A stretch of 64,000 bases of DNA from Candidatus Vogelbacteria bacterium (GCA_903864935.1 CAIPHT010000015.1:6618-70617); one strand, 5' to 3'. Positions 4,658 through 51,467 are shown, numbered from the stretch's first letter. Notes: a model not told the origin generated them from the sequence alone. Program-made: numbers and translations.

Positions 4658-4695
4658 GAAAAAGACAAGTTGAAAAACTTGTCTTTTTCGGTTAA
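4658..4695 (+). terminator. Hairpin (aagacaagtt-gaaa-aacttgtctt) plus a T-tract, lying between two tRNA genes
   Basis: 10-bp stem followed by tttcgg. Confidence 0.5.
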
Positions 4696-6512: not shown

Positions 6513-7190
6513 ATGATTTACTTTGATAAAGTTTGCAAAATTTACTCTAATTCAGTGGCTTTAGAGGACGTGACCTTCACTGTTCTGCCAGGAGAGTTTA
6601 TCTCTATTGTTGGTCATTCTGGCGCCGGCAAGACAACTCTCCTGAAGATGATTCTGGCCGAAGATTGCCCAACTTCGGGTAATGTTTATTTTGACTCTGT
6701 CGATATTCATAAAGTTAGCAAAGGTAAATTGCCGTTACTTCGTCGTCGCATCGGGTCGGTTTTTCAAGACTTTCGCCTTTTGCCCAATAAGACCGCTTAT
6801 GAGAATATCGCTTTTACTATGGAGGCCTCTGGCCGGCCAGACGACGAGATTAAGTCTGATATTCCTCACGTGCTTGAACTTGTGGGCTTGGGGGGCAAGC
6901 TAGCTAATTTCCCACACGAACTTTCTGGGGGGGAGAGACAGCGCCTGGCGATTGCTCGGGCCATTATCAATCAACCTGACCTTCTTATTGCTGATGAACC
7001 AACAGGCAATCTTGATCCGATTAATACAGCGGAGATTATTGAAATTTTCAAGAAAATTAATCAGATCGGCACGACGGTGATACTTACCACTCACAATAAG
7101 AAAGTCATCGATAGTCTTGGTCGACGAGTTATCACTTTAGATCAGGGCCGGGTGGTGAGAGATGACAAGGAGGGTAAGTATGCTTTATAA
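6513..7190 (+). CDS. ftsE: Cell-division ABC transporter ATP-binding protein FtsE
   Basis: Walker A GHSGAGKTT, ABC signature LSGGERQR, Walker B LLIADEPT, and adjacency to ftsX. Confidence 0.9.
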   Translation: MIYFDKVCKIYSNSVALEDVTFTVLPGEFISIVGHSGAGKTTLLKMILAEDCPTSGNVYFDSVDIHKVSKGKLPLLRRRIGSVFQDFRLLPNKTAYENIAFTMEASGRPDDEIKSDIPHVLELVGLGGKLANFPHELSGGERQRLAIARAIINQPDLLIADEPTGNLDPINTAEIIEIFKKINQIGTTVILTTHNKKVIDSLGRRVITLDQGRVVRDDKEGKYAL

Positions 7191-7198
7191 TTAAAATA

Positions 7199-8230: not shown

Positions 8231-9886
8231 ATGAAAAAGCACAAGTATATTTTTGTTTTAGGGGGAGTGATGTCGGGTGTTGGTAAGGGGGTGACGGCGT
8301 CGTCAATTGGGAAGATCCTGCAATCGCGCGGTTATAAAGTTAATCCGATCAAGATTGACCCGTATCTTAATGTCGATGCCGGGACAATGAATCCGATTGA
8401 GCATGGCGAAGTCTTCGTGCTTGATTCGGGGCTCGAGTGCGATCAAGATATGGGCAATTATGAGCGCTTCTTGGACGTGAGTGTGCCCCATGAGAGTTAT
8501 ATGACAAGTGGCATGGTCTATAAATATGTGATTGATAAAGAGCGAGCCCTAGGTTATGGCGGTCGTTGTGTGGACCCCGTGCCTTTTATCGGTGAAGAGA
8601 TTTATCGTCGCATTAATCTCTCGATTAAGAAGACAGGCTCAGACATTACCATTATTGAGATTGGGGGGACAATTGGTGAATATCAGAATGTGATGTTTAT
8701 CGAAGCAGCCCGTGTGCTTAAATTAAGGAATCCTGAAGACGTGCTCTTTGTTCTCGTGAGTTACTTGCCGGTACCAAATAAGATTGGCGAGATGAAGACC
8801 AAACCAACTCAATCGGCCGTGCAAACTATGAACTCTTATGGTATCCATCCTGATATTATTATTGCTCGCGCTGATCGCCCGCTTGATACAAGACGCAAAG
8901 AGAAGATCGCTTTCATGAGTAATATCACGACCGAGAGCATTATCTCGGCGCCGGATATTGAGAGTATTTATGACATCCCCATTAATTTTGAGAAAGATCA
9001 TCTTGGTGAGCGTTTGCTGAAATTACTTAAACTTAAATCTAAAACCAGTGACCTTAAGGCTTGGGCCAAGATGACCGAGAAAGTTAAGAAAGCGAAGACT
9101 GAGGTAAGGATTGGGATTGTGGGGAAATATTTCAAAACGGGGGACTTCGTTTTATCAGATGTTTATATTTCAGTAATCGAATCGCTTAAGCACGCGGCGA
9201 CCTCTCTTGATAAGAAGGTGAAAATTGATTGGCTCGATTCACATGATTATGAAGAGGATCCAAAGAAATTAAAAGATCTAAAAAAATATCAGGGCATCTT
9301 AGTGCCGGGGGGTTTCGGCGAGCGGGGGATAGAAGGTAAGATTCGCGCGATTCAATTTGCGAGAGAGAACAAGATTCCTTATTTTGGTTTGTGTTATGGG
9401 ATGCAATTAGCGGTCATTGAATTTGCCCGTCACGTGGTGGGGCTTAAAGACGCCCACACGACCGAGATTAATCCCGAGACCAAGAATCCGGTGGTGGTGA
9501 TTATGGATGAACAGCGCAAGCTTATGGCGAATAAGAATTATGGGGGCACTATGCGCCTCGGGGCCTATCCTTGTCTTCTTAAGCCCAAAACCATTGCCCT
9601 AGAGGCCTACAAGGCCGGTGGGAGGCTAGAGAAGGGGGATAAAATCAGCGAACGTCACAGACACCGCTTCGAGGTGAATCCGGCCTATGTCGAGCAATTG
9701 GAGGCCAAGGGGCTCGTTTTCTCCGGTACTTCGCCCAATGGTGTCTTGATGGAGATTGCCGAGTTGCCTCGCAAAGATCACCCCTTCTTCTTAGGTTCCC
9801 AATTCCACCCTGAGTTCAAATCCTCACCCTTAAATCCCCACCCACTCTTCGTGGAGTTCGTAAAATCCGCCAGCAGACAAAAATAA
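8231..9886 (+). CDS. pyrG: CTP synthase
   Basis: N-terminal synthetase domain (YIFVLGGVMSGVGKGVTASS) and a C-terminal class-I glutamine amidotransferase domain (GLCYGMQ...H..E). Confidence 0.95.
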   Translation: MKKHKYIFVLGGVMSGVGKGVTASSIGKILQSRGYKVNPIKIDPYLNVDAGTMNPIEHGEVFVLDSGLECDQDMGNYERFLDVSVPHESYMTSGMVYKYVIDKERALGYGGRCVDPVPFIGEEIYRRINLSIKKTGSDITIIEIGGTIGEYQNVMFIEAARVLKLRNPEDVLFVLVSYLPVPNKIGEMKTKPTQSAVQTMNSYGIHPDIIIARADRPLDTRRKEKIAFMSNITTESIISAPDIESIYDIPINFEKDHLGERLLKLLKLKSKTSDLKAWAKMTEKVKKAKTEVRIGIVGKYFKTGDFVLSDVYISVIESLKHAATSLDKKVKIDWLDSHDYEEDPKKLKDLKKYQGILVPGGFGERGIEGKIRAIQFARENKIPYFGLCYGMQLAVIEFARHVVGLKDAHTTEINPETKNPVVVIMDEQRKLMANKNYGGTMRLGAYPCLLKPKTIALEAYKAGGRLEKGDKISERHRHRFEVNPAYVEQLEAKGLVFSGTSPNGVLMEIAELPRKDHPFFLGSQFHPEFKSSPLNPHPLFVEFVKSASRQK

Positions 9887-9935
9887 TCAAGGGCGTGCCT
9901 TGATTAAAAAATAGGCTAGTCTTATAATTATCTTC

Positions 9936-10610
9936 ATGCAAAGAAATTTTTCTTTTAGTGTGGGAGAAATTTATCATCTTTATAATCGCGGAGTTAATAA
10001 ACAGCCTATTTTTTTAAATGAACATGACAGAGTTCGTTTTTTAATTTTGCTTTATCTTTGCAACGGGAGCAATGATGTCCATATTAGTAACAATAATCAA
10101 GGGCGTGCCTTGATTGAGCGAGAGTACTTTGATCTAGATAAGGGGGAGCCTCTTGTTGAAATTATTGCTTACTGCTTAATGCCAAATCATTTTCACCTTT
10201 TAGTTAAGGAAAAAGAAGAGGGTGGTATTTCTAAATTTATGTTGAAGCTTCTGACTGGCTATGGAATGTATTTTAACAAAAGAAATCAAAGAACCGGACC
10301 AATTTTTGAAGGTCGTTTTAAAGCGAAACATGTTTTTGAAGATTCTTATTTAGAATACTTGCTTGCTTATATTCATTTGAATCCTGTTAAAATAAAAGAT
10401 GAAGAAGGTTGGAATGGAAAAAGTATCCCTGATCTAGCTAGGGCGAAGGAATTCCTTGAAGACTATCGATTTTCTAGCTACCTATTTTTTCTCGGTCAAG
10501 ATCGGCCAGAAAATAGCATTTTTAATATTGAAGCTTTATCAGAAGAAGTTTTGGGAGAGCAAAAAAATCTTAAAGAGTTAGTTAAGCTTTGGTCAGACTT
10601 TGAAGTTTAG
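9936..10610 (+). CDS. IS200/IS605-family or REP-associated tyrosine (Y1, HUH) transposase
   Basis: HUH motif PNHFHLLV and catalytic-Tyr region YLLAYIHLNPV (COG1943-like). Confidence 0.7.
   Translation: MQRNFSFSVGEIYHLYNRGVNKQPIFLNEHDRVRFLILLYLCNGSNDVHISNNNQGRALIEREYFDLDKGEPLVEIIAYCLMPNHFHLLVKEKEEGGISKFMLKLLTGYGMYFNKRNQRTGPIFEGRFKAKHVFEDSYLEYLLAYIHLNPVKIKDEEGWNGKSIPDLARAKEFLEDYRFSSYLFFLGQDRPENSIFNIEALSEEVLGEQKNLKELVKLWSDFEV
10095..10115 (+). repeat. Third copy of the REP-like hairpin, in frame inside the transposase ORF (it encodes NNQGRALI)
   Basis: The 24-nt string aataatcaagggcgtgccttgatt is identical to the left flanking copy at 9882-9905. Confidence 0.75.
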
Positions 10611-10638
10611 ATAAAAAATAATCAAGGCACGCCCTTGA

Positions 10639-11835
10639 TTATTGGGGAGAGGTTTGATTTTTTAATTCTTCAACAATTTGCTCGTGAGATTTTCTCTTTG
10701 GCCAGACTAAATTACCATCAGTATCATAAATAGGGATTAAGAGCTCCGGGGTATGGCCATACGTTCTTAGTAAAAGATTTCCTAAATCATCAACAACTCT
10801 GTCTGCATCAATAAAGTCTTTTTCGCGAAGAGAGATTAGGTCAATGACAATCCCTCTAAAAGATGTTGGTTTTATGCTTGGAGTTAACACAAAACCATAT
10901 TCAGAGGTTGGAACAGGCCGGCCTTCTTCATTGAAGCTCCCAACCATATACCCTTTTTTGTTTCTTAAATCTTCCCTGGTAAGATCTCTGCCTTGAGCTT
11001 TTTTCATTTCTTCGTAAAGACCAAAGAGTTGGGGGTCATTGTGTTGGTATTTTTTCCCCTCAATAATTTTGTCTTTATTTCTGTAAATAGAACTTTCTTT
11101 CCCTTCGCCAGGTAACTCATCGAAAGATTCTATGTCGAATAGTAAGGCAATAGAATTTGGAGAAATCCAGTGAGAACTAGCAATTTCAGTTTTACCTATA
11201 GAAAAATATTTTTTTTCATGTCCGCCTCGACCAGTTATATTAAAATGAACAAAAACATTTTTACCCCCTTCAGGGGATCGGTTCTTCTCATATGAAGTTA
11301 GGGCCTTATCTATAAAACCTTCTCTATCTAGGCGATCATCGTCTTCATAATTTAATCCCAATAACCCACGATTTAAGATTCTTCTTATGTTAAACAATTC
11401 TTTTCTCCAGTCTTCCTCGAAAGCTTCTTTCTCCCGTTCCGGCAAACTGTTCCACATTTCCCATATTTCTTGTTCAACTTGAACTCTGGTCTTTCCTTTT
11501 GTTGGCCAATCTCTTGTTTTTTGCTCGGCTTCTTTCGCTAATCTGTTAGATTTCCATATTGCAGCTATATTCGAATAGGCGGTCCCTTTTGCGTCAATAT
11601 CCTGGACTTTAGTCATAATCTTTTCGATCACCTCTGGTGTTAATTTAATTTCTCCTTTATGAGGGACAGCTTCTCTCCGTTTAATATCCAACAATTCATC
11701 TTCAAGATCATATTGACCGCCAGAAAATGAACCTTTTTGTCCTGGATGTTTTTCACCAAGACTTGTTCTTAATTCCTCGGCTTCTTTGAGGGCGTCGCCT
11801 AAATTTAGTGGTTTTTGTTCAAATTTTTCAGGCAT
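10639..11835 (-). CDS. Hypothetical protein (398 aa)
   Basis: Long clean ORF with no recognisable motif. Confidence 0.5.
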   Translation of the reverse strand: MPEKFEQKPLNLGDALKEAEELRTSLGEKHPGQKGSFSGGQYDLEDELLDIKRREAVPHKGEIKLTPEVIEKIMTKVQDIDAKGTAYSNIAAIWKSNRLAKEAEQKTRDWPTKGKTRVQVEQEIWEMWNSLPEREKEAFEEDWRKELFNIRRILNRGLLGLNYEDDDRLDREGFIDKALTSYEKNRSPEGGKNVFVHFNITGRGGHEKKYFSIGKTEIASSHWISPNSIALLFDIESFDELPGEGKESSIYRNKDKIIEGKKYQHNDPQLFGLYEEMKKAQGRDLTREDLRNKKGYMVGSFNEEGRPVPTSEYGFVLTPSIKPTSFRGIVIDLISLREKDFIDADRVVDDLGNLLLRTYGHTPELLIPIYDTDGNLVWPKRKSHEQIVEELKNQTSPQ

Positions 11836-11849
11836 AATTTTCTAAGTAA

Positions 11850-12563
11850 CTAAATTAATTTCCCTAGGTAGTGATTGAGCGTATAAATCCAATCTTCGTC
11901 ATCGGCTTCGCCCTCTAATTTTTGCTTCAGGAGCCATTCGAGATAACCGCGGTCGGTCTTGGCGACATCGGCGATAGCTTCGTCTTTGTGCTTGCCAAAA
12001 TTAAACTTCTTGTAGAGAGCCGGCGTGTTCGAAATCTTAATCATCTTCGCGATGGTCTCGTCGTCACTTAAGCCCTCGGACTTAATCTTTTGGAATTGAC
12101 GGTTGAAGATGGCTTCGAGCACATTCACATCACCTTCGGCATCATGCGCCCCACCCTCGATCTCAAGATCAAGGTAATAGCGTAAGAATTGCAAATTATA
12201 CTCGGGGATAATCGCCTCGGTATCAAGATAGCGAGCCACGCGCAGGGTACAAATAAAGTGGGGGACCTTGAGACCCTCGGCCTCGAGAATAGCGATATCA
12301 AACTTGGCATTATGGGCGATTAAGACGTGGTCGGCGAGCAAGGTCTCTAGTTCTTGCTTCATAGCGCTACCTTCGAAGGCAGGTTTGTCTTCAACCATCT
12401 TGTTAGTGATGTGGGTGATACTTGATGACTTGGTTGAGATAGGAAGCGGTGGTTTGAAGTATTCGGTTCTGGTCCCGTCTTTGGTGCGATAACAGACTTG
12501 GCAGAGACGATCCTTGGCCACTTCATTGCCGGTGGTCTCAGTGTCTAAGAAAAGTAGATTCAT
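11850..12563 (-). CDS. DEDDh 3'-5' exonuclease (DnaQ/ExoX-like) with an ExoX-like C-terminal domain
   Basis: Exo I FLDTETTG, Exo II HNAKFDIAIL, Exo III HDAEGDVNV, and a C-terminal FNFGKHKDEAIADVAKTDRGYLEWL. Confidence 0.75.
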   Translation of the reverse strand: MNLLFLDTETTGNEVAKDRLCQVCYRTKDGTRTEYFKPPLPISTKSSSITHITNKMVEDKPAFEGSAMKQELETLLADHVLIAHNAKFDIAILEAEGLKVPHFICTLRVARYLDTEAIIPEYNLQFLRYYLDLEIEGGAHDAEGDVNVLEAIFNRQFQKIKSEGLSDDETIAKMIKISNTPALYKKFNFGKHKDEAIADVAKTDRGYLEWLLKQKLEGEADDEDWIYTLNHYLGKLI

Positions 12564-12575
12564 ATTGTTTTATCT

Positions 12576-13214
12576 TTAGTTGCGATTAATGCCTTCGATT
12601 AATTTTGGTTTGCCACTGGTGTCGATAATTCGTGCCGGGGCGCTGTAGTTATCCGTCTTAATCTTGCTTTGATCTAAAGTGAGGACTTTGGTTTGGGCGT
12701 CATCAACTATTTTTTTGTAACCATCAATTTGAGTTTGGGTTAAGCCTGAATCCTCCGGAGAGAGTCCGCTGATCGCTGCGCTGAGATCGTTGAGGTAATC
12801 TAAAACAATCTTACGATTTTCTTCGGAGAGACTCTGGAGACTTGAGTTAGAGAGAGACCCTGGTTCGGCGATAAGTTTGGCCCAGTCTTGGAGGAGCTTG
12901 TTTAACTCGGCTCTTTTGGTATTGATTAACTTTTTATCATTAAGATTAGCCAGACGAATTTTGATCTCGGGGTTAGGCCCTAGGGGGTTAGAGAAGAGAC
13001 TGTCGGTCCCTGATTGAAGGGCGTCTCTTGCTCCGATATAAGTTAGGGCGGGGATATTAGAGCTTTGGTTGCTGGAGTTTTCTTGAATCATTTTTTCGAT
13101 CTTGGCGTCACTTGTTGCTTGGGGAGTAATGGCCGGGCTCATCTTGTGGAAGAACCAAAAGCCAATAATAATGATTATTAAGATAAGGCTAGTGATTAAA
13201 AATATTTTTTTCAT
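12576..13214 (-). CDS. Hypothetical membrane-anchored protein
   Basis: N-terminal TM helix followed by a low-complexity Ser/Asn-rich region. Confidence 0.5.
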   Translation of the reverse strand: MKKIFLITSLILIIIIIGFWFFHKMSPAITPQATSDAKIEKMIQENSSNQSSNIPALTYIGARDALQSGTDSLFSNPLGPNPEIKIRLANLNDKKLINTKRAELNKLLQDWAKLIAEPGSLSNSSLQSLSEENRKIVLDYLNDLSAAISGLSPEDSGLTQTQIDGYKKIVDDAQTKVLTLDQSKIKTDNYSAPARIIDTSGKPKLIEGINRN

Positions 13215-13232
13215 TCCATTTATCTTACACTA

Positions 13233-13958
13233 CTAATGAGCTTGGGTGAAGAGGACACGGGCAGGCCCGTCAGCCTTCTTGGTCTTCTCGTTATAGTCGT
13301 GGAAAGAACTTATAAATAATTGGTAACCATAGCGATGACCATTGCCCTGCTTAAGATCCCCCGGGTCGTTTGTTAAGAACTCCTGCTTGCTGTCATCATA
13401 ACCACGAATCACCATCACGTGATAGGAGGAACCATTCGGAGCAAAGGGGATATTGGGGTTCTTAAGATCAAAACCGTGGTGGAAGCTGACAACAGGGTGA
13501 CCTTCTCTCAATTCATTTTTAATTTCTTCGAGCGTTGGATTATCTTTTATTACAGCGCGATAAGATTCATAATTATTTATCAGATAAGCCGTGCGCAGGG
13601 CAGAGGAGTTGTCGTTGCTACCATAGAGTTTGTCTTGGGTGGCAAAAAGAATTTTCATTGCCTCGACGGCAGTGCTTGTGCTAATGGTCTTATCACCTTG
13701 GTAGAACTTCGCAATCATGGTCATGCTGGCCTCTTCGCAGGCGTTGACCCAGGGGCGTTTCTCTATCCCCTCGGGCATCTCGCTGGCATAAGGAACGGGC
13801 AAGTCTACTTTATTAGCAATAGTGACAAAACTTTGTTCGCTTGATTTTGTTGGAAGCTTAATTTCAAAATGCGTAATTAAGCCATAGGCAATTAGGCCGA
13901 TAGAAAAGATAAAGAGAATTAAATAAGTAAAAAACTGTTTTGGCGTAAACATGTTCAA
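13233..13958 (-). CDS. Membrane-anchored protein with a C39-like (papain-fold) cysteine peptidase domain
   Basis: N-terminal TM helix, a Cys in PWVNACEEASMTM and a His in SSYHVMVIRGYDD. Confidence 0.4.
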   Translation of the reverse strand: MNMFTPKQFFTYLILFIFSIGLIAYGLITHFEIKLPTKSSEQSFVTIANKVDLPVPYASEMPEGIEKRPWVNACEEASMTMIAKFYQGDKTISTSTAVEAMKILFATQDKLYGSNDNSSALRTAYLINNYESYRAVIKDNPTLEEIKNELREGHPVVSFHHGFDLKNPNIPFAPNGSSYHVMVIRGYDDSKQEFLTNDPGDLKQGNGHRYGYQLFISSFHDYNEKTKKADGPARVLFTQAH

Positions 13959-13964
13959 CCTGGA

Positions 13965-15098
13965 CTATTGATACTGAATAAAGCTTGGCTGAGGTTTAAC
14001 TCTCAAGACCTCGGTGGGGGTCATCATGCGGCCTCCCTCCTCTTTATAATCATTTTTATAGAAGAGCTTGAAGCCGGTAAATTGGATAGGATAATCGTAG
14101 ATGTAGTTTTTATAAGTATTCAATTTGCGCGCTTGCATGCCCCAGCCATCCATATCCATAACAATCTGAACTTCAGGCAAGGGCTTGATACTCATGGCGT
14201 TGGTCACCATGTTTTGGGTGAAGCGATGAACGATGAGAATCTTGGGTGGGAGATTGTTGTCGCGCACTAACTTGGCCAAATAATTGGCCGTCACATTTAC
14301 CTCGCTCCCGTCGACCGTGCCGATATAGTCGCCCGGCTTCTGGCCGTTCTTCATGCAAAATTCGGGATCAATCGCGAGGTGCACTTGAGGAAGTTTGAGA
14401 TAGGGTTCGAGGACCTTAATCTCTCGCTGGAGATTACCAAGGCCCGGTTGAACTTCTAAAATTACGATAGCCTGCTTCTTGGCGGCCATCTTGATAACCT
14501 TATCAATCTCGGTGCTTGGCATACGTAAGCTATAATCTCCGTCTTGTCCGGCACTGCCTTGGGCGGTAGCGACAATATAATCAAGCGCGGGTTGCACGGG
14601 GGTATTGGGGTCAGCGAGTTCCCACTTCTTAATCTCAACTTCGAGACGTCTTAACATTTCCGCTTCGGGATACTCACCAAGAACCCCCATCCTGGTGGAG
14701 TAGAGGTTGCCATAATAAGCGACGACTCGTTTGAAGGGGAGGATGGCGCCGGCGTTAGGGTAAACGGCTTTGGCGGGCCAAAGACTTTTTATTTTTTTGG
14801 TCGAACTAGCGGTACTACTTGAGATTGTTGCTGAGGGAATATTTTTGCTGGTGGTGGCATTAGCTAATTGCCAGAGTTTGAGATCATAGGCGACCTTATC
14901 TAAGACAGGGACAGTGTTGACGGGCAGAGTACTGGTGGAGCTTGTGGCCTGATTGACTAAGGCGAGAGCCTCAGCTTGGTTATAGTGAGCGGGGAAGAGG
15001 TAGCCTGAATACATATAGCCAAAAACCAAAAAAGCGCCCAAAAAGGTTATTCCCATGATTCGAGTCCGAAACCCTTTATTGTGACGTTTTTTTGTCAT
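13965..15098 (-). CDS. Hypothetical membrane-anchored protein
   Basis: The start was set at MTKKRHNK (nt 15098) because the longer ORF overlaps the dedA-like gene. Confidence 0.45.
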   Translation of the reverse strand: MTKKRHNKGFRTRIMGITFLGAFLVFGYMYSGYLFPAHYNQAEALALVNQATSSTSTLPVNTVPVLDKVAYDLKLWQLANATTSKNIPSATISSSTASSTKKIKSLWPAKAVYPNAGAILPFKRVVAYYGNLYSTRMGVLGEYPEAEMLRRLEVEIKKWELADPNTPVQPALDYIVATAQGSAGQDGDYSLRMPSTEIDKVIKMAAKKQAIVILEVQPGLGNLQREIKVLEPYLKLPQVHLAIDPEFCMKNGQKPGDYIGTVDGSEVNVTANYLAKLVRDNNLPPKILIVHRFTQNMVTNAMSIKPLPEVQIVMDMDGWGMQARKLNTYKNYIYDYPIQFTGFKLFYKNDYKEEGGRMMTPTEVLRVKPQPSFIQYQ

Positions 15099-24477: not shown

Positions 24478-24496
24478 GTTGAGAACACTAAAATCA

Positions 24497-24535
24497 CGGG
24501 TTGCGCCTACATATAGGCGCAACCCGTTTTCTTTT
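24497..24535 (+). terminator. Rho-independent terminator ending the NAD-salvage operon
   Basis: cgggttgcgcc-tacatata-ggcgcaacccg followed by ttttctttt. Confidence 0.7.
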
Positions 24536-39862: not shown

Positions 39863-39878
39863 AGTTTTCAGTGTTTGT

Positions 39879-39906
39879 GCCCCGCGTCGGCAAGCCGACG
39901 CGGGGC
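39879..39906 (+). terminator. GC-rich hairpin T1 (gccccgcgtcggc-aa-gccgacgcggggc), near-identical to T2
   Basis: 13-bp stem. There is no strong T-tract after this copy. Confidence 0.45.
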
Positions 39907-39946
39907 AGTGTCATTTATAGATCACTTAAAGAAGGACAAGTTAACA

Positions 39947-51390: not shown

Positions 51391-51467
51391 CCCCGCCAAG
51401 TGATTTAAGCTTAAATCACTTGGCGGGGTAAACATAGTTGGTCTAGTTTACCCCGTAATCTGCGGGG
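51391..51467. repeat. Cluster of three overlapping hairpins (a 38-nt perfect palindrome ccccgccaagtgatttaa-gc-ttaaatcacttggcgggg, then ggggtaaac...gtttacccc, then ccccg-taatct-gcgggg)
   Basis: Read directly from the sequence. Adjacent hairpins share G4/C4 arms, so the structures are mutually exclusive. Confidence 0.6.

Follow-up and report, generated by a model that had tools for sequence, protein, structure and literature searches.

A nuclease gene and three copies of one hairpin

We analyzed 64,000 nucleotides of DNA from Candidatus Vogelbacteria bacterium (GCA_903864935.1 CAIPHT010000015.1:6618-70617), which we will call the window. The host genome is Paceibacteria- or Vogelbacteria-like. 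At positions 9936-10610 on the plus strand, the window encodes a Y1 HUH nuclease of 224 amino acids (HUH is short for histidine-hydrophobic-histidine) that resembles the REP-associated tyrosine transposases, or RAYTs (REP is short for repetitive extragenic palindrome). To its left lies pyrG (CTP synthase; 8231-9886, plus strand), which is a conserved neighbor and anchors the synteny of the locus; to its right lies a convergent open reading frame (ORF) of 398 amino acids (10639-11835, minus strand). One short hairpin flanks the nuclease gene on both sides and occurs a third time, in frame, within it. A preliminary description of the locus proposed that the element had inserted its own recognition hairpin into its own gene. 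As we will describe, the internal copy is instead an old feature of the gene family, and it evolves together with the flanking copies.

The hairpin is a 21-mer, AATCAAGGGCGTGCCTTGATT, with stem arms AATCAAGG and CCTTGATT around the loop gcgtg. An exact search of the window found the three copies that had been reported, including the inverted one on the right: 9885-9905 (plus strand), 10095-10115 (plus strand), and 10620-10640 (minus strand). There is no fourth match in the window, even with up to 3 mismatches allowed, and the chance expectation is zero (100 shuffles). The identity extends beyond the 21-mer, as 9882-9905 and 10092-10115 are the same over 24 nt, and there are perfect 25-nt inverted repeats between 9882-9906 and 10619-10643 and between 10091-10115 and 10620-10644. 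When folded as single-stranded DNA, each copy is predicted to form a stem of 8-11 bp with a 5-nt loop (-6.8 to -9.1 kcal/mol; z from -3.3 to -6.0).

The left REP-like hairpin (9882-9906, plus strand) has a stem that reaches 9 bp over 9884-9906. It does adjoin the stop codon of pyrG, as described earlier, but it overlaps this codon (TAA, 9884-9886) by 2 nt rather than following it. Similarly, the right REP-like hairpin (10617-10643, minus strand; stem of up to 11 bp, loop in the opposite orientation to that of the left copy) does adjoin the nuclease gene, but its core begins 9 nt past the stop codon (TAG, 10608-10610). It also shares 2 nt with the stop codon of the convergent ORF. The intragenic copy (10092-10115, plus strand) is in frame and encodes N53-N-Q-G-R-A-L-I60; both its identity to the left copy over 24 nt and its translation were correctly described. 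The extended stem, TAATCAAGG...CCTTGATTA, provides the TAA stop of a neighboring gene on either strand: for pyrG and for the 398-amino-acid ORF in the window (9884-9886 and 10639-10641), and for the methionyl-tRNA synthetase (MetRS) gene in L005 (L005:4910-4912). This implies that the repeats are placed exactly at gene ends in these compact genomes.

A chance origin of the 21-mer was ruled out by its absence from the shuffled sequences and by the presence of the same 21-mer in independent assemblies. An assembly or adaptor artifact was also ruled out, as the same arrangement is present in NCBI, JGI, ENA, and Logan assemblies of different samples. A search of Rfam gave no match to the hairpin at E ≤ 1. 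The window also contains 11 perfect hairpins whose stems measure 9 bp or more (the longest is 18 bp), as compared to about 1.2 in block-shuffled sequence. The other hairpins among these, which include 874-913, 4658-4689, 24496-24527, 39878-39907, and 51391-51428, are unrelated in sequence to the RAYT hairpin, and some hairpins lie inside long open frames (609-629, encoding SHETKSRG, and 24496-24527).

The Y1 HUH protein

The protein matches the Y1_Tnp family of Pfam (PF01797) with 32.7 bits, where the cut-off is 23. Its HUH motif is H85-F-H87 (nt 10188-10196), and the putative catalytic residue is Y145, within YIHLNP (nt 10368-10370). H85, H87, and Y145 do not vary among 34 aligned homologs. 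An AlphaFold (AF2) model has a pLDDT (predicted local distance difference test) of 92.9, and its top fold match in PDB is E. coli TnpA_REP on a REP hairpin (4er8_A; E = 1.8e-6, TM-score of 0.63 normalized by target length), followed by the TnpA proteins of ISDra2 and IS608 (E = 8e-4 or weaker). A sequence-profile search of PDB with the same protein gave no match. The NCBIfam model for RAYT equivalogs, NF047646 (REP_Tyr_transpos), gives 43.6 bits (E = 2.6e-11), which is below its cut-off of 80; judged by its sequence, the protein is a distant relative of the curated RAYT model and not an equivalog. The family is very large in Patescibacteria: of 8000 candidates that were scored, 7944 matched, all of about 220 amino acids. 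A phage origin was ruled out, as there was no PHROG match for the protein or for the adjoining ORFs, and a scan of viral contigs with the family alignment returned nothing.

As previously described, the residues encoded by the hairpin lie between the first strand (amino acids 12-19) and the HUH motif. In the model they form a surface loop between short helices at 50-53 and 61-64. Besides the two terminal blocks, residues 51-60 are the 10-residue block with the lowest confidence (mean pLDDT of 82).

The internal copy matches the flanking copies in most loci

We compared the DNA of 13 loci of this family (the window, L013, L022, L024, L026, and L028-L035), whose proteins share 50-100% amino acid identity. 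In all 13 loci, hairpins are present on both sides of the gene, either singly or as inverted doublets that resemble REPINs (short for REP doublets forming hairpins). They are placed about 25-55 nt upstream of the start codon and 0-13 nt past the stop codon. In 9 of the 13 loci, just one segment of the gene of 17-25 nt recurs in the flanks, and this segment lies at the same codon position as in the window (gene nt ~155-186, amino acids ~52-62). It is at least 18 nt long in every one of these loci except L033. The sequences themselves are specific to each lineage (for example, AATCAAGGgcgtgCCTTGATT, TTCAAGGTcgaACCTTGAA, GTGAAGGTcggACCTTCAC, AAAAAGGtcggtCCTTTTT, CGAAGGGCGGTCCTTTGTA, TACAAGGTtcaACCTTGT, and GGCAAGGGcgaCCCTTGCC). 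When the internal 19-mers were compared with the flanks of all lineages, a locus's own flanks differed from its own internal copy at 0-1 positions, whereas flanks differed from the internal copies of other clades at 4-9 positions (the sole exception is L029/L033, with 3 mismatches). Identity within each genome alongside divergence between genomes is the pattern of concerted evolution.

The stem of the internal copy also shows covariation. Across 10 internal hairpins, 90% of the cells in the stem are paired, with some G-T (G-U) wobble pairs. There were 20 double-sided stem changes, as compared to 6.5 ± 2.1 in shuffles (none of 500 reached 20), and slid registers scored low; this is a small sample of 10 sequences, and the structure that was tested was derived from the same sequences. 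The compensatory pairs CAAGG/CCTTG, GAAGG/CCTTC, and AAAGG/CCTTT give Q..L, E..F, and K..F in the protein. Indeed, the motif [QEK]-G-x-[STAP]-[LF] is present at the position encoded by the hairpin in 83 of 118 homologs of at least 49% identity, and in this set Q is accompanied by L in 54 of 56 cases, E by F in 12 of 12, and K by F in 13 of 15. This pairing of residues is expected from the base-pairing of the stem arms. In L033, the loop has changed from CGN to TCA in the internal and flanking copies alike, with Arg changed to Ser in the protein, so in this lineage the protein follows the repeat. There is constraint at the nucleotide level as well: the genes of the window and L013 are 75.7% identical, and their longest identical run (29 nt) lies over the hairpin (permutation p = 0.048). 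The concerted evolution of the internal copy implies that a DNA element dictates the local protein sequence.

Two loci suggest what is being maintained. In L026, the internal unit has a stem of its own of just 4 bp, yet it is identical at 19 of 19 nt to one arm of the flanking doublets. In L031, the internal hairpin is related but has diverged, and 13 of 19 nt match one arm of the flanking doublets (the internal stems of L026 and L031 are 4-7 bp). The weak stem and complete identity in L026 argue that what is conserved is the sequence and not the stability of the stem.

The internal copy has decayed in three other loci: just its left arm is left in L035, and nothing of it in L024 or L032. These three loci and L031 all retain their flanking hairpins, and where the internal copy has decayed, the loops of the flanking hairpins differ from those of sister lineages. 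In L032, the RAYT gene also lies between two direct repeats of about 95 nt (9865-9994 and 10667-10780). Within each repeat are the hairpins GGCAAGGGttaCCCTTGCC and ATGTCAAGGGttaCCCTTGACAT, plus a small third stem-loop; the first of these hairpins and the internal one of the related L034 gene differ by 2 nt.

Hairpins elsewhere in related genomes

We found the exact 21-mer in two related metagenome-assembled genomes (MAGs), with 2-3 exact copies in each, and in a dozen metagenome contigs. L026 has 10 units in 12 kb. Many of the copies are inside genes. Exact copies are in frame in genes for UvrC (where they encode NQGTPLI), a MurD-like ligase (2 sites), an IscS-like desulfurase (2 sites), an MnmA-like protein, and a metallophosphoesterase. 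Other exact copies are at gene ends, such as the junction of the MetRS and TatD genes, which is conserved in two species, and further copies are intergenic. The intragenic copies occupy only the four frames that are free of stop codons. A variant of the hairpin from L034 is in frame in a prepilin peptidase gene, and a doublet of it lies in the linker of LigA. An exact in-frame match at L018:3535-3555 (QLNQGRALIE) was set aside as probably due to chance, because the architecture of the host protein is unexpected in Patescibacteria: it is a 1805-amino-acid Ser/Thr-kinase/AAA_16/GAF/His-kinase protein on a 112-kb contig.

Orthologous sites show how these copies change. In the phosphoesterase, the loop is flipped between orthologs, so that the protein has SRHALD in one and SRACLD in the other (L006:4139-4159 versus L014:2736-2756). 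Flipped loops at orthologous sites imply either frequent flipping of the loop or re-insertion at existing hairpins. At the first site in IscS, NQGRALI in L011 stands in place of ATKKHII in L020, seven codons for seven, and a swap of equal length is not predicted by a simple insertion model. One MurD site has a 21-nt hairpin in L012 (3732-3752, SSNQGTPLI), whereas L004 has a perfect palindrome of 52 nt there (1887-1938; CTGCCCCGACGACGGTCATCGGGAAA/TTTCCCGATGACCGTCGTCGGGGCAG, in frame, encoding LPRRRSSGNFPMTVVGAG). Simple insertion, with clean presence or absence of the hairpin, was not seen at any of the orthologous IscS, MurD, and phosphoesterase sites that we compared. L004 also has other GC-rich in-frame oddities, such as ACPERSRRV. 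This suggests that several families of palindromes decorate the proteins of the Candidate Phyla Radiation (CPR). Beside the hairpin, we found no conserved guide or tag tetranucleotide in at least 15 copies; the flanks are variable and A/T-rich.

One gene copy per locus, at a conserved position

There is one copy of the RAYT gene per locus, including within the 64 kb of the window. It lies directly after pyrG in five species (the window, L013, L022, L024, and L035), and exoX is downstream in three of these. The RAYTs are 78, 69, and 77% identical to that of the window, as compared to 71-86% for the neighboring ftsX, pyrG, and exoX. A single syntenic copy per locus that diverges at about the rate of its neighbors suggests vertical inheritance, and the RAYT gene appears to be domesticated rather than part of an active insertion sequence (IS).

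The orientations of the left, internal, and right hairpins vary: they are +,+,- in the window, +,+,+ in L013, and -,+,- in L022. For example, the loop of the right hairpin is CACGC in the window (10620-10640) and GCGTG in L013 (7933-7953). We considered a fixed inversion or deletion switch built from the three copies and rejected it, as the orientations vary among orthologous loci.

Between pyrG and exoX, the cargo beside the RAYT gene differs from species to species, and the locus, with hairpins as its bounds, behaves like a hotspot for genes that vary. In the window the cargo is the 398-amino-acid ORF, which has no family match; in L013 it is a 214-amino-acid ORF between two hairpins (6549-7193); in L024 it is three small ORFs (8549-9920); and in L022 it is an island with a serine recombinase (10800-14905).

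Promoter-like and terminator-like features

A promoter-like site for the Y1 gene (9900-9928, plus strand) matches the consensus at 10 of 12 positions. The 3' arm of the left hairpin supplies its -35 hexamer, TTGATT (9900-9905), and a 17-nt spacer separates this from a -10 box, TATAAT (9923-9928). A similar layout was seen by eye in L013, L022, L024, and L035. In IS200, a hairpin beside the promoter or the ribosome-binding site controls expression.

The right hairpin resembles a terminator for the ORF at 10639-11835, as a T-run comes after it on the minus strand. For pyrG, the sequence past the left hairpin on the plus strand is A6 and not a T-run. A T-run 3' of the gene on the transcribed strand, as in an intrinsic terminator, is thus found for the right copy only, on the minus strand.

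Comparison with known systems

The locus is most similar to the REP/RAYT systems. As in E. coli, where TnpA_REP (also known as RayT or YafM) is associated with REPs and with bacterial interspersed mosaic elements (BIMEs), the protein is a one-tyrosine Y1 HUH protein, and 4er8 is its nearest fold. As in E. coli and in Pseudomonas, whose RAYTs are associated with REPINs, the gene is syntenic, with one copy per locus and probable vertical inheritance, and it has cognate palindromes to its left and right; these can be single hairpins or REPIN-like inverted pairs, and repeats are also dispersed without the gene. Unlike the known REP/RAYT systems, this one has a cognate repeat within the gene itself, where its codon position is conserved and its sequence changes together with that of the flanking copies. 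For comparison, the coding sequence of rayT from E. coli K-12 (b0228) shares no k-mer of 10 nt or more with the flanking REP/BIME copies. The protein from Patescibacteria is also about 60 amino acids longer than TnpA_REP. The hairpins are short and AT-rich, with stems of 7-13 bp and loops of 3-5 nt; many are intragenic, and their apparent copy number is low, all of which differs from characterized REPs.

The IS200/IS605 family (IS200, IS608, and ISDra2) shares the Y1 HUH fold and the placement of subterminal hairpins around a small gene. In contrast to these elements, the RAYT gene is not multicopy and has not been mobile on the time scale that we sampled, and its hairpins also stand alone elsewhere. 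They are perfect palindromes whose loop orientation varies among orthologous loci, and a third copy lies within the ORF.

The intragenic copies can be compared with the Rickettsia palindromic elements (RPEs) and with the GTAG/CGTC family of REPs, which are known to occur within genes, including uvrA and uvrB (Di Nocera et al. 2013, PMC3733652). In each case, short palindromes are in frame in housekeeping and DNA-repair genes (here UvrC) and only in stop-free frames. The unit described here differs in that it is much shorter (21 nt, or 7 codons), sometimes replaces native codons at equal length, and is tied to a Y1 gene that itself carries a copy. In the REP/RAYT literature that we searched (Bertels 2017, Quentin 2018, Di Nocera 2013 including supplements, Corneloup 2021, and Messing 2012), we found no report of a REP inside the coding sequence of a RAYT and no report of REP/RAYT systems in Patescibacteria.

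Interpretation and a proposed mechanism

The reading that the locus is a REP/RAYT unit, which was proposed in the preliminary description, is supported by the invariant HUH motif and tyrosine, by TnpA_REP as the top fold match, by hairpins on both sides of the gene, and by their dispersal in relatives. We consider it probable that the locus is a vertically inherited, single-copy REP/RAYT unit of Patescibacteria whose flanking repeats evolve in concert with a third copy, in frame at codons 53-60. Rather than having inserted itself recently, the copy within the gene is old in this family, and in most members it lies in this same surface loop.

We propose that the enzyme would recognize the hairpin when it is extruded in single-stranded DNA and would cut and rejoin at its foot. 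It would act preferentially on the copies nearest to its own gene, which would lead to exchange of hairpin sequences among the three sites; occasionally a hairpin might be seeded elsewhere, including in frame in other genes. Exchange driven by the enzyme would explain the identity within each genome, the flipped loops, the replacements of equal length, and the different palindromes at one site. We infer from these patterns that the enzyme recognizes all three copies and exchanges hairpins among them. The protein would probably also damp its own expression by binding to the upstream copy, which overlaps the -35 box, and to the internal copy, which lies in the mRNA.

Several observations weigh against this picture. 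E. coli TnpA_REP requires a GTAG/CGTC tag and a bulge (PMC3479197), and in characterized REPs a tetranucleotide, GTAG or CGTC, is conserved as a 5' tag and the stem is imperfect, with a bulge (PMC3479197, PMC3733652), whereas these hairpins are perfect palindromes with no tag of this type and no bulge. The protein scores below the cut-off of the curated RAYT model. The apparent copy number of the hairpin is low: 3 in 64 kb, all at the gene, and 2-3 exact copies in each related MAG. About 30% of close homologs lack the motif, and the internal copy is dispensable, as its decay in some loci illustrates. The flanks of L013 share a T..A stem end that is absent from the internal copy, which implies that exchange can leave the internal site partly unchanged. 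The covariation analysis was small, as mentioned above. Autoregulation of the Y1 gene is plausible, with a consensus promoter match as its one line of evidence. Finally, the concerted evolution could stem from ordinary short-patch gene conversion instead of from the enzyme.

Alternative explanations

A recent insertion of one 24-nt recognition hairpin into its own RAYT gene, with the frame kept by chance, would account for the 24-nt identity to the left copy and for a length that is a multiple of 3. The loop of the window protein and of P0002 is also about 3 amino acids longer than that of P0003, P0005, P0007, and P0008, and the same hairpin in frame in unrelated genes indicates that in-frame intragenic copies do arise. 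The result that the preliminary description had named as refuting its reading was not obtained: the hairpin occurs elsewhere, and orthologs retain the palindrome at the nucleotide level. However, in the protein alignment, the excess over the nearest relatives that lack the hairpin is about 3 residues and not 8, QGRAL aligns on the family-wide motif, and P0007 has YQGRALM with a length equal to that of the hairpin-less relatives, so NNQGRALI is not a clean insertion of 8 codons. Furthermore, orthologs and paralogs of down to about 50% identity (members of 50-79% identity) carry a hairpin that matches their own flanks at the same codon position, which demands either one ancient origin or many independent insertions at one codon. 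Self-insertion in this lineage is thus largely refuted, and we consider it unlikely. An active element of the IS200/IS605 type, with the outer hairpins as its left and right subterminal ends and the internal copy incidental, would fit the resemblance to IS200 of hairpins around a Y1 gene of about 0.7 kb, as well as the next-best fold matches, ISDra2 and IS608 TnpA. We think that this is quite unlikely: there is one copy in the window and in every locus, its position is conserved and its divergence is in step with that of its neighbors, hairpins are dispersed without the gene and vary in orientation among orthologous loci, and the top fold match is to a domesticated TnpA_REP.

The hairpins might instead be ordinary terminators or RNA stem-loops that are unrelated to the enzyme, with the internal one under selection of its own as a structure in the mRNA, for example as a translation attenuator or a nuclease site. 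The right and left hairpins are followed by T-runs on the minus strand and have been called terminator-like, the repeats of L007 and the doublets of L026 look like bidirectional terminators, and the internal stem contains wobble pairs. In contrast, the left hairpin is followed by an A-run on the strand of pyrG, and a terminator within an ORF would be self-defeating; the internal units of L026 and L031 have weak stems and are still related to an arm of the flanking doublets, which indicates that identity is kept rather than stability. Nor would this account for the 21-mer in frame in UvrC, MurD, IscS, and MnmA or for the strict association with a Y1 gene in 13 of 13 loci. There is also no Rfam match, and we regard this explanation as very unlikely. 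A passive history would begin with an ancient in-frame REP that the loop tolerates and that has no function; RecA-type short-patch conversion over 0.2-0.5 kb would then keep the copies alike, and the enzyme would not be involved. The loop is variable and includes the internal block with the lowest pLDDT, the homologs that lost the motif have kept the gene, the flanking hairpins remain after the loss (L024, L032, and L035), and the flanks of L013 have drifted jointly away from the internal copy, all of which agree with such a history. However, RecA-dependent conversion would have tracts of just 19-25 nt of homology to work with, which is very short, the same homogenization is found in 9 independent lineages, and the flipped loops and replaced palindromes in other genes indicate a process that is specific to hairpins. 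The passive history as a whole seems unlikely to us; ordinary gene conversion without the enzyme is nevertheless a live rival to the enzyme-driven exchange that we propose.

Implications for REP/RAYT systems and for Patescibacteria

More tentatively, the intragenic copy might be a heritable master or anchor, that is, a template that reseeds and homogenizes the hairpins of the genome; we consider this possible but doubtful. If it is true, then the repeat and the protein loop would form one co-encoded unit in which neither could be lost or could drift alone, and the residues of the loop may help to recognize their own coding hairpin. The long-term association of REPs and RAYTs would then have a built-in linkage, with a non-coding mobile element dictating protein sequence across the phylum.

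REP/RAYT is the best-known case of a domesticated transposase that has coexisted with non-autonomous repeats for millions of years. An embedded repeat that co-varies with its flanks, in lineages with as little as 50% protein identity, provides a direct handle on how a REP and its RAYT stay matched. The unit also extends REP/RAYT biology to Patescibacteria (CPR). In their compact genomes the repeats are often in frame in essential genes, which bears on the annotation and the alignment of CPR proteins.

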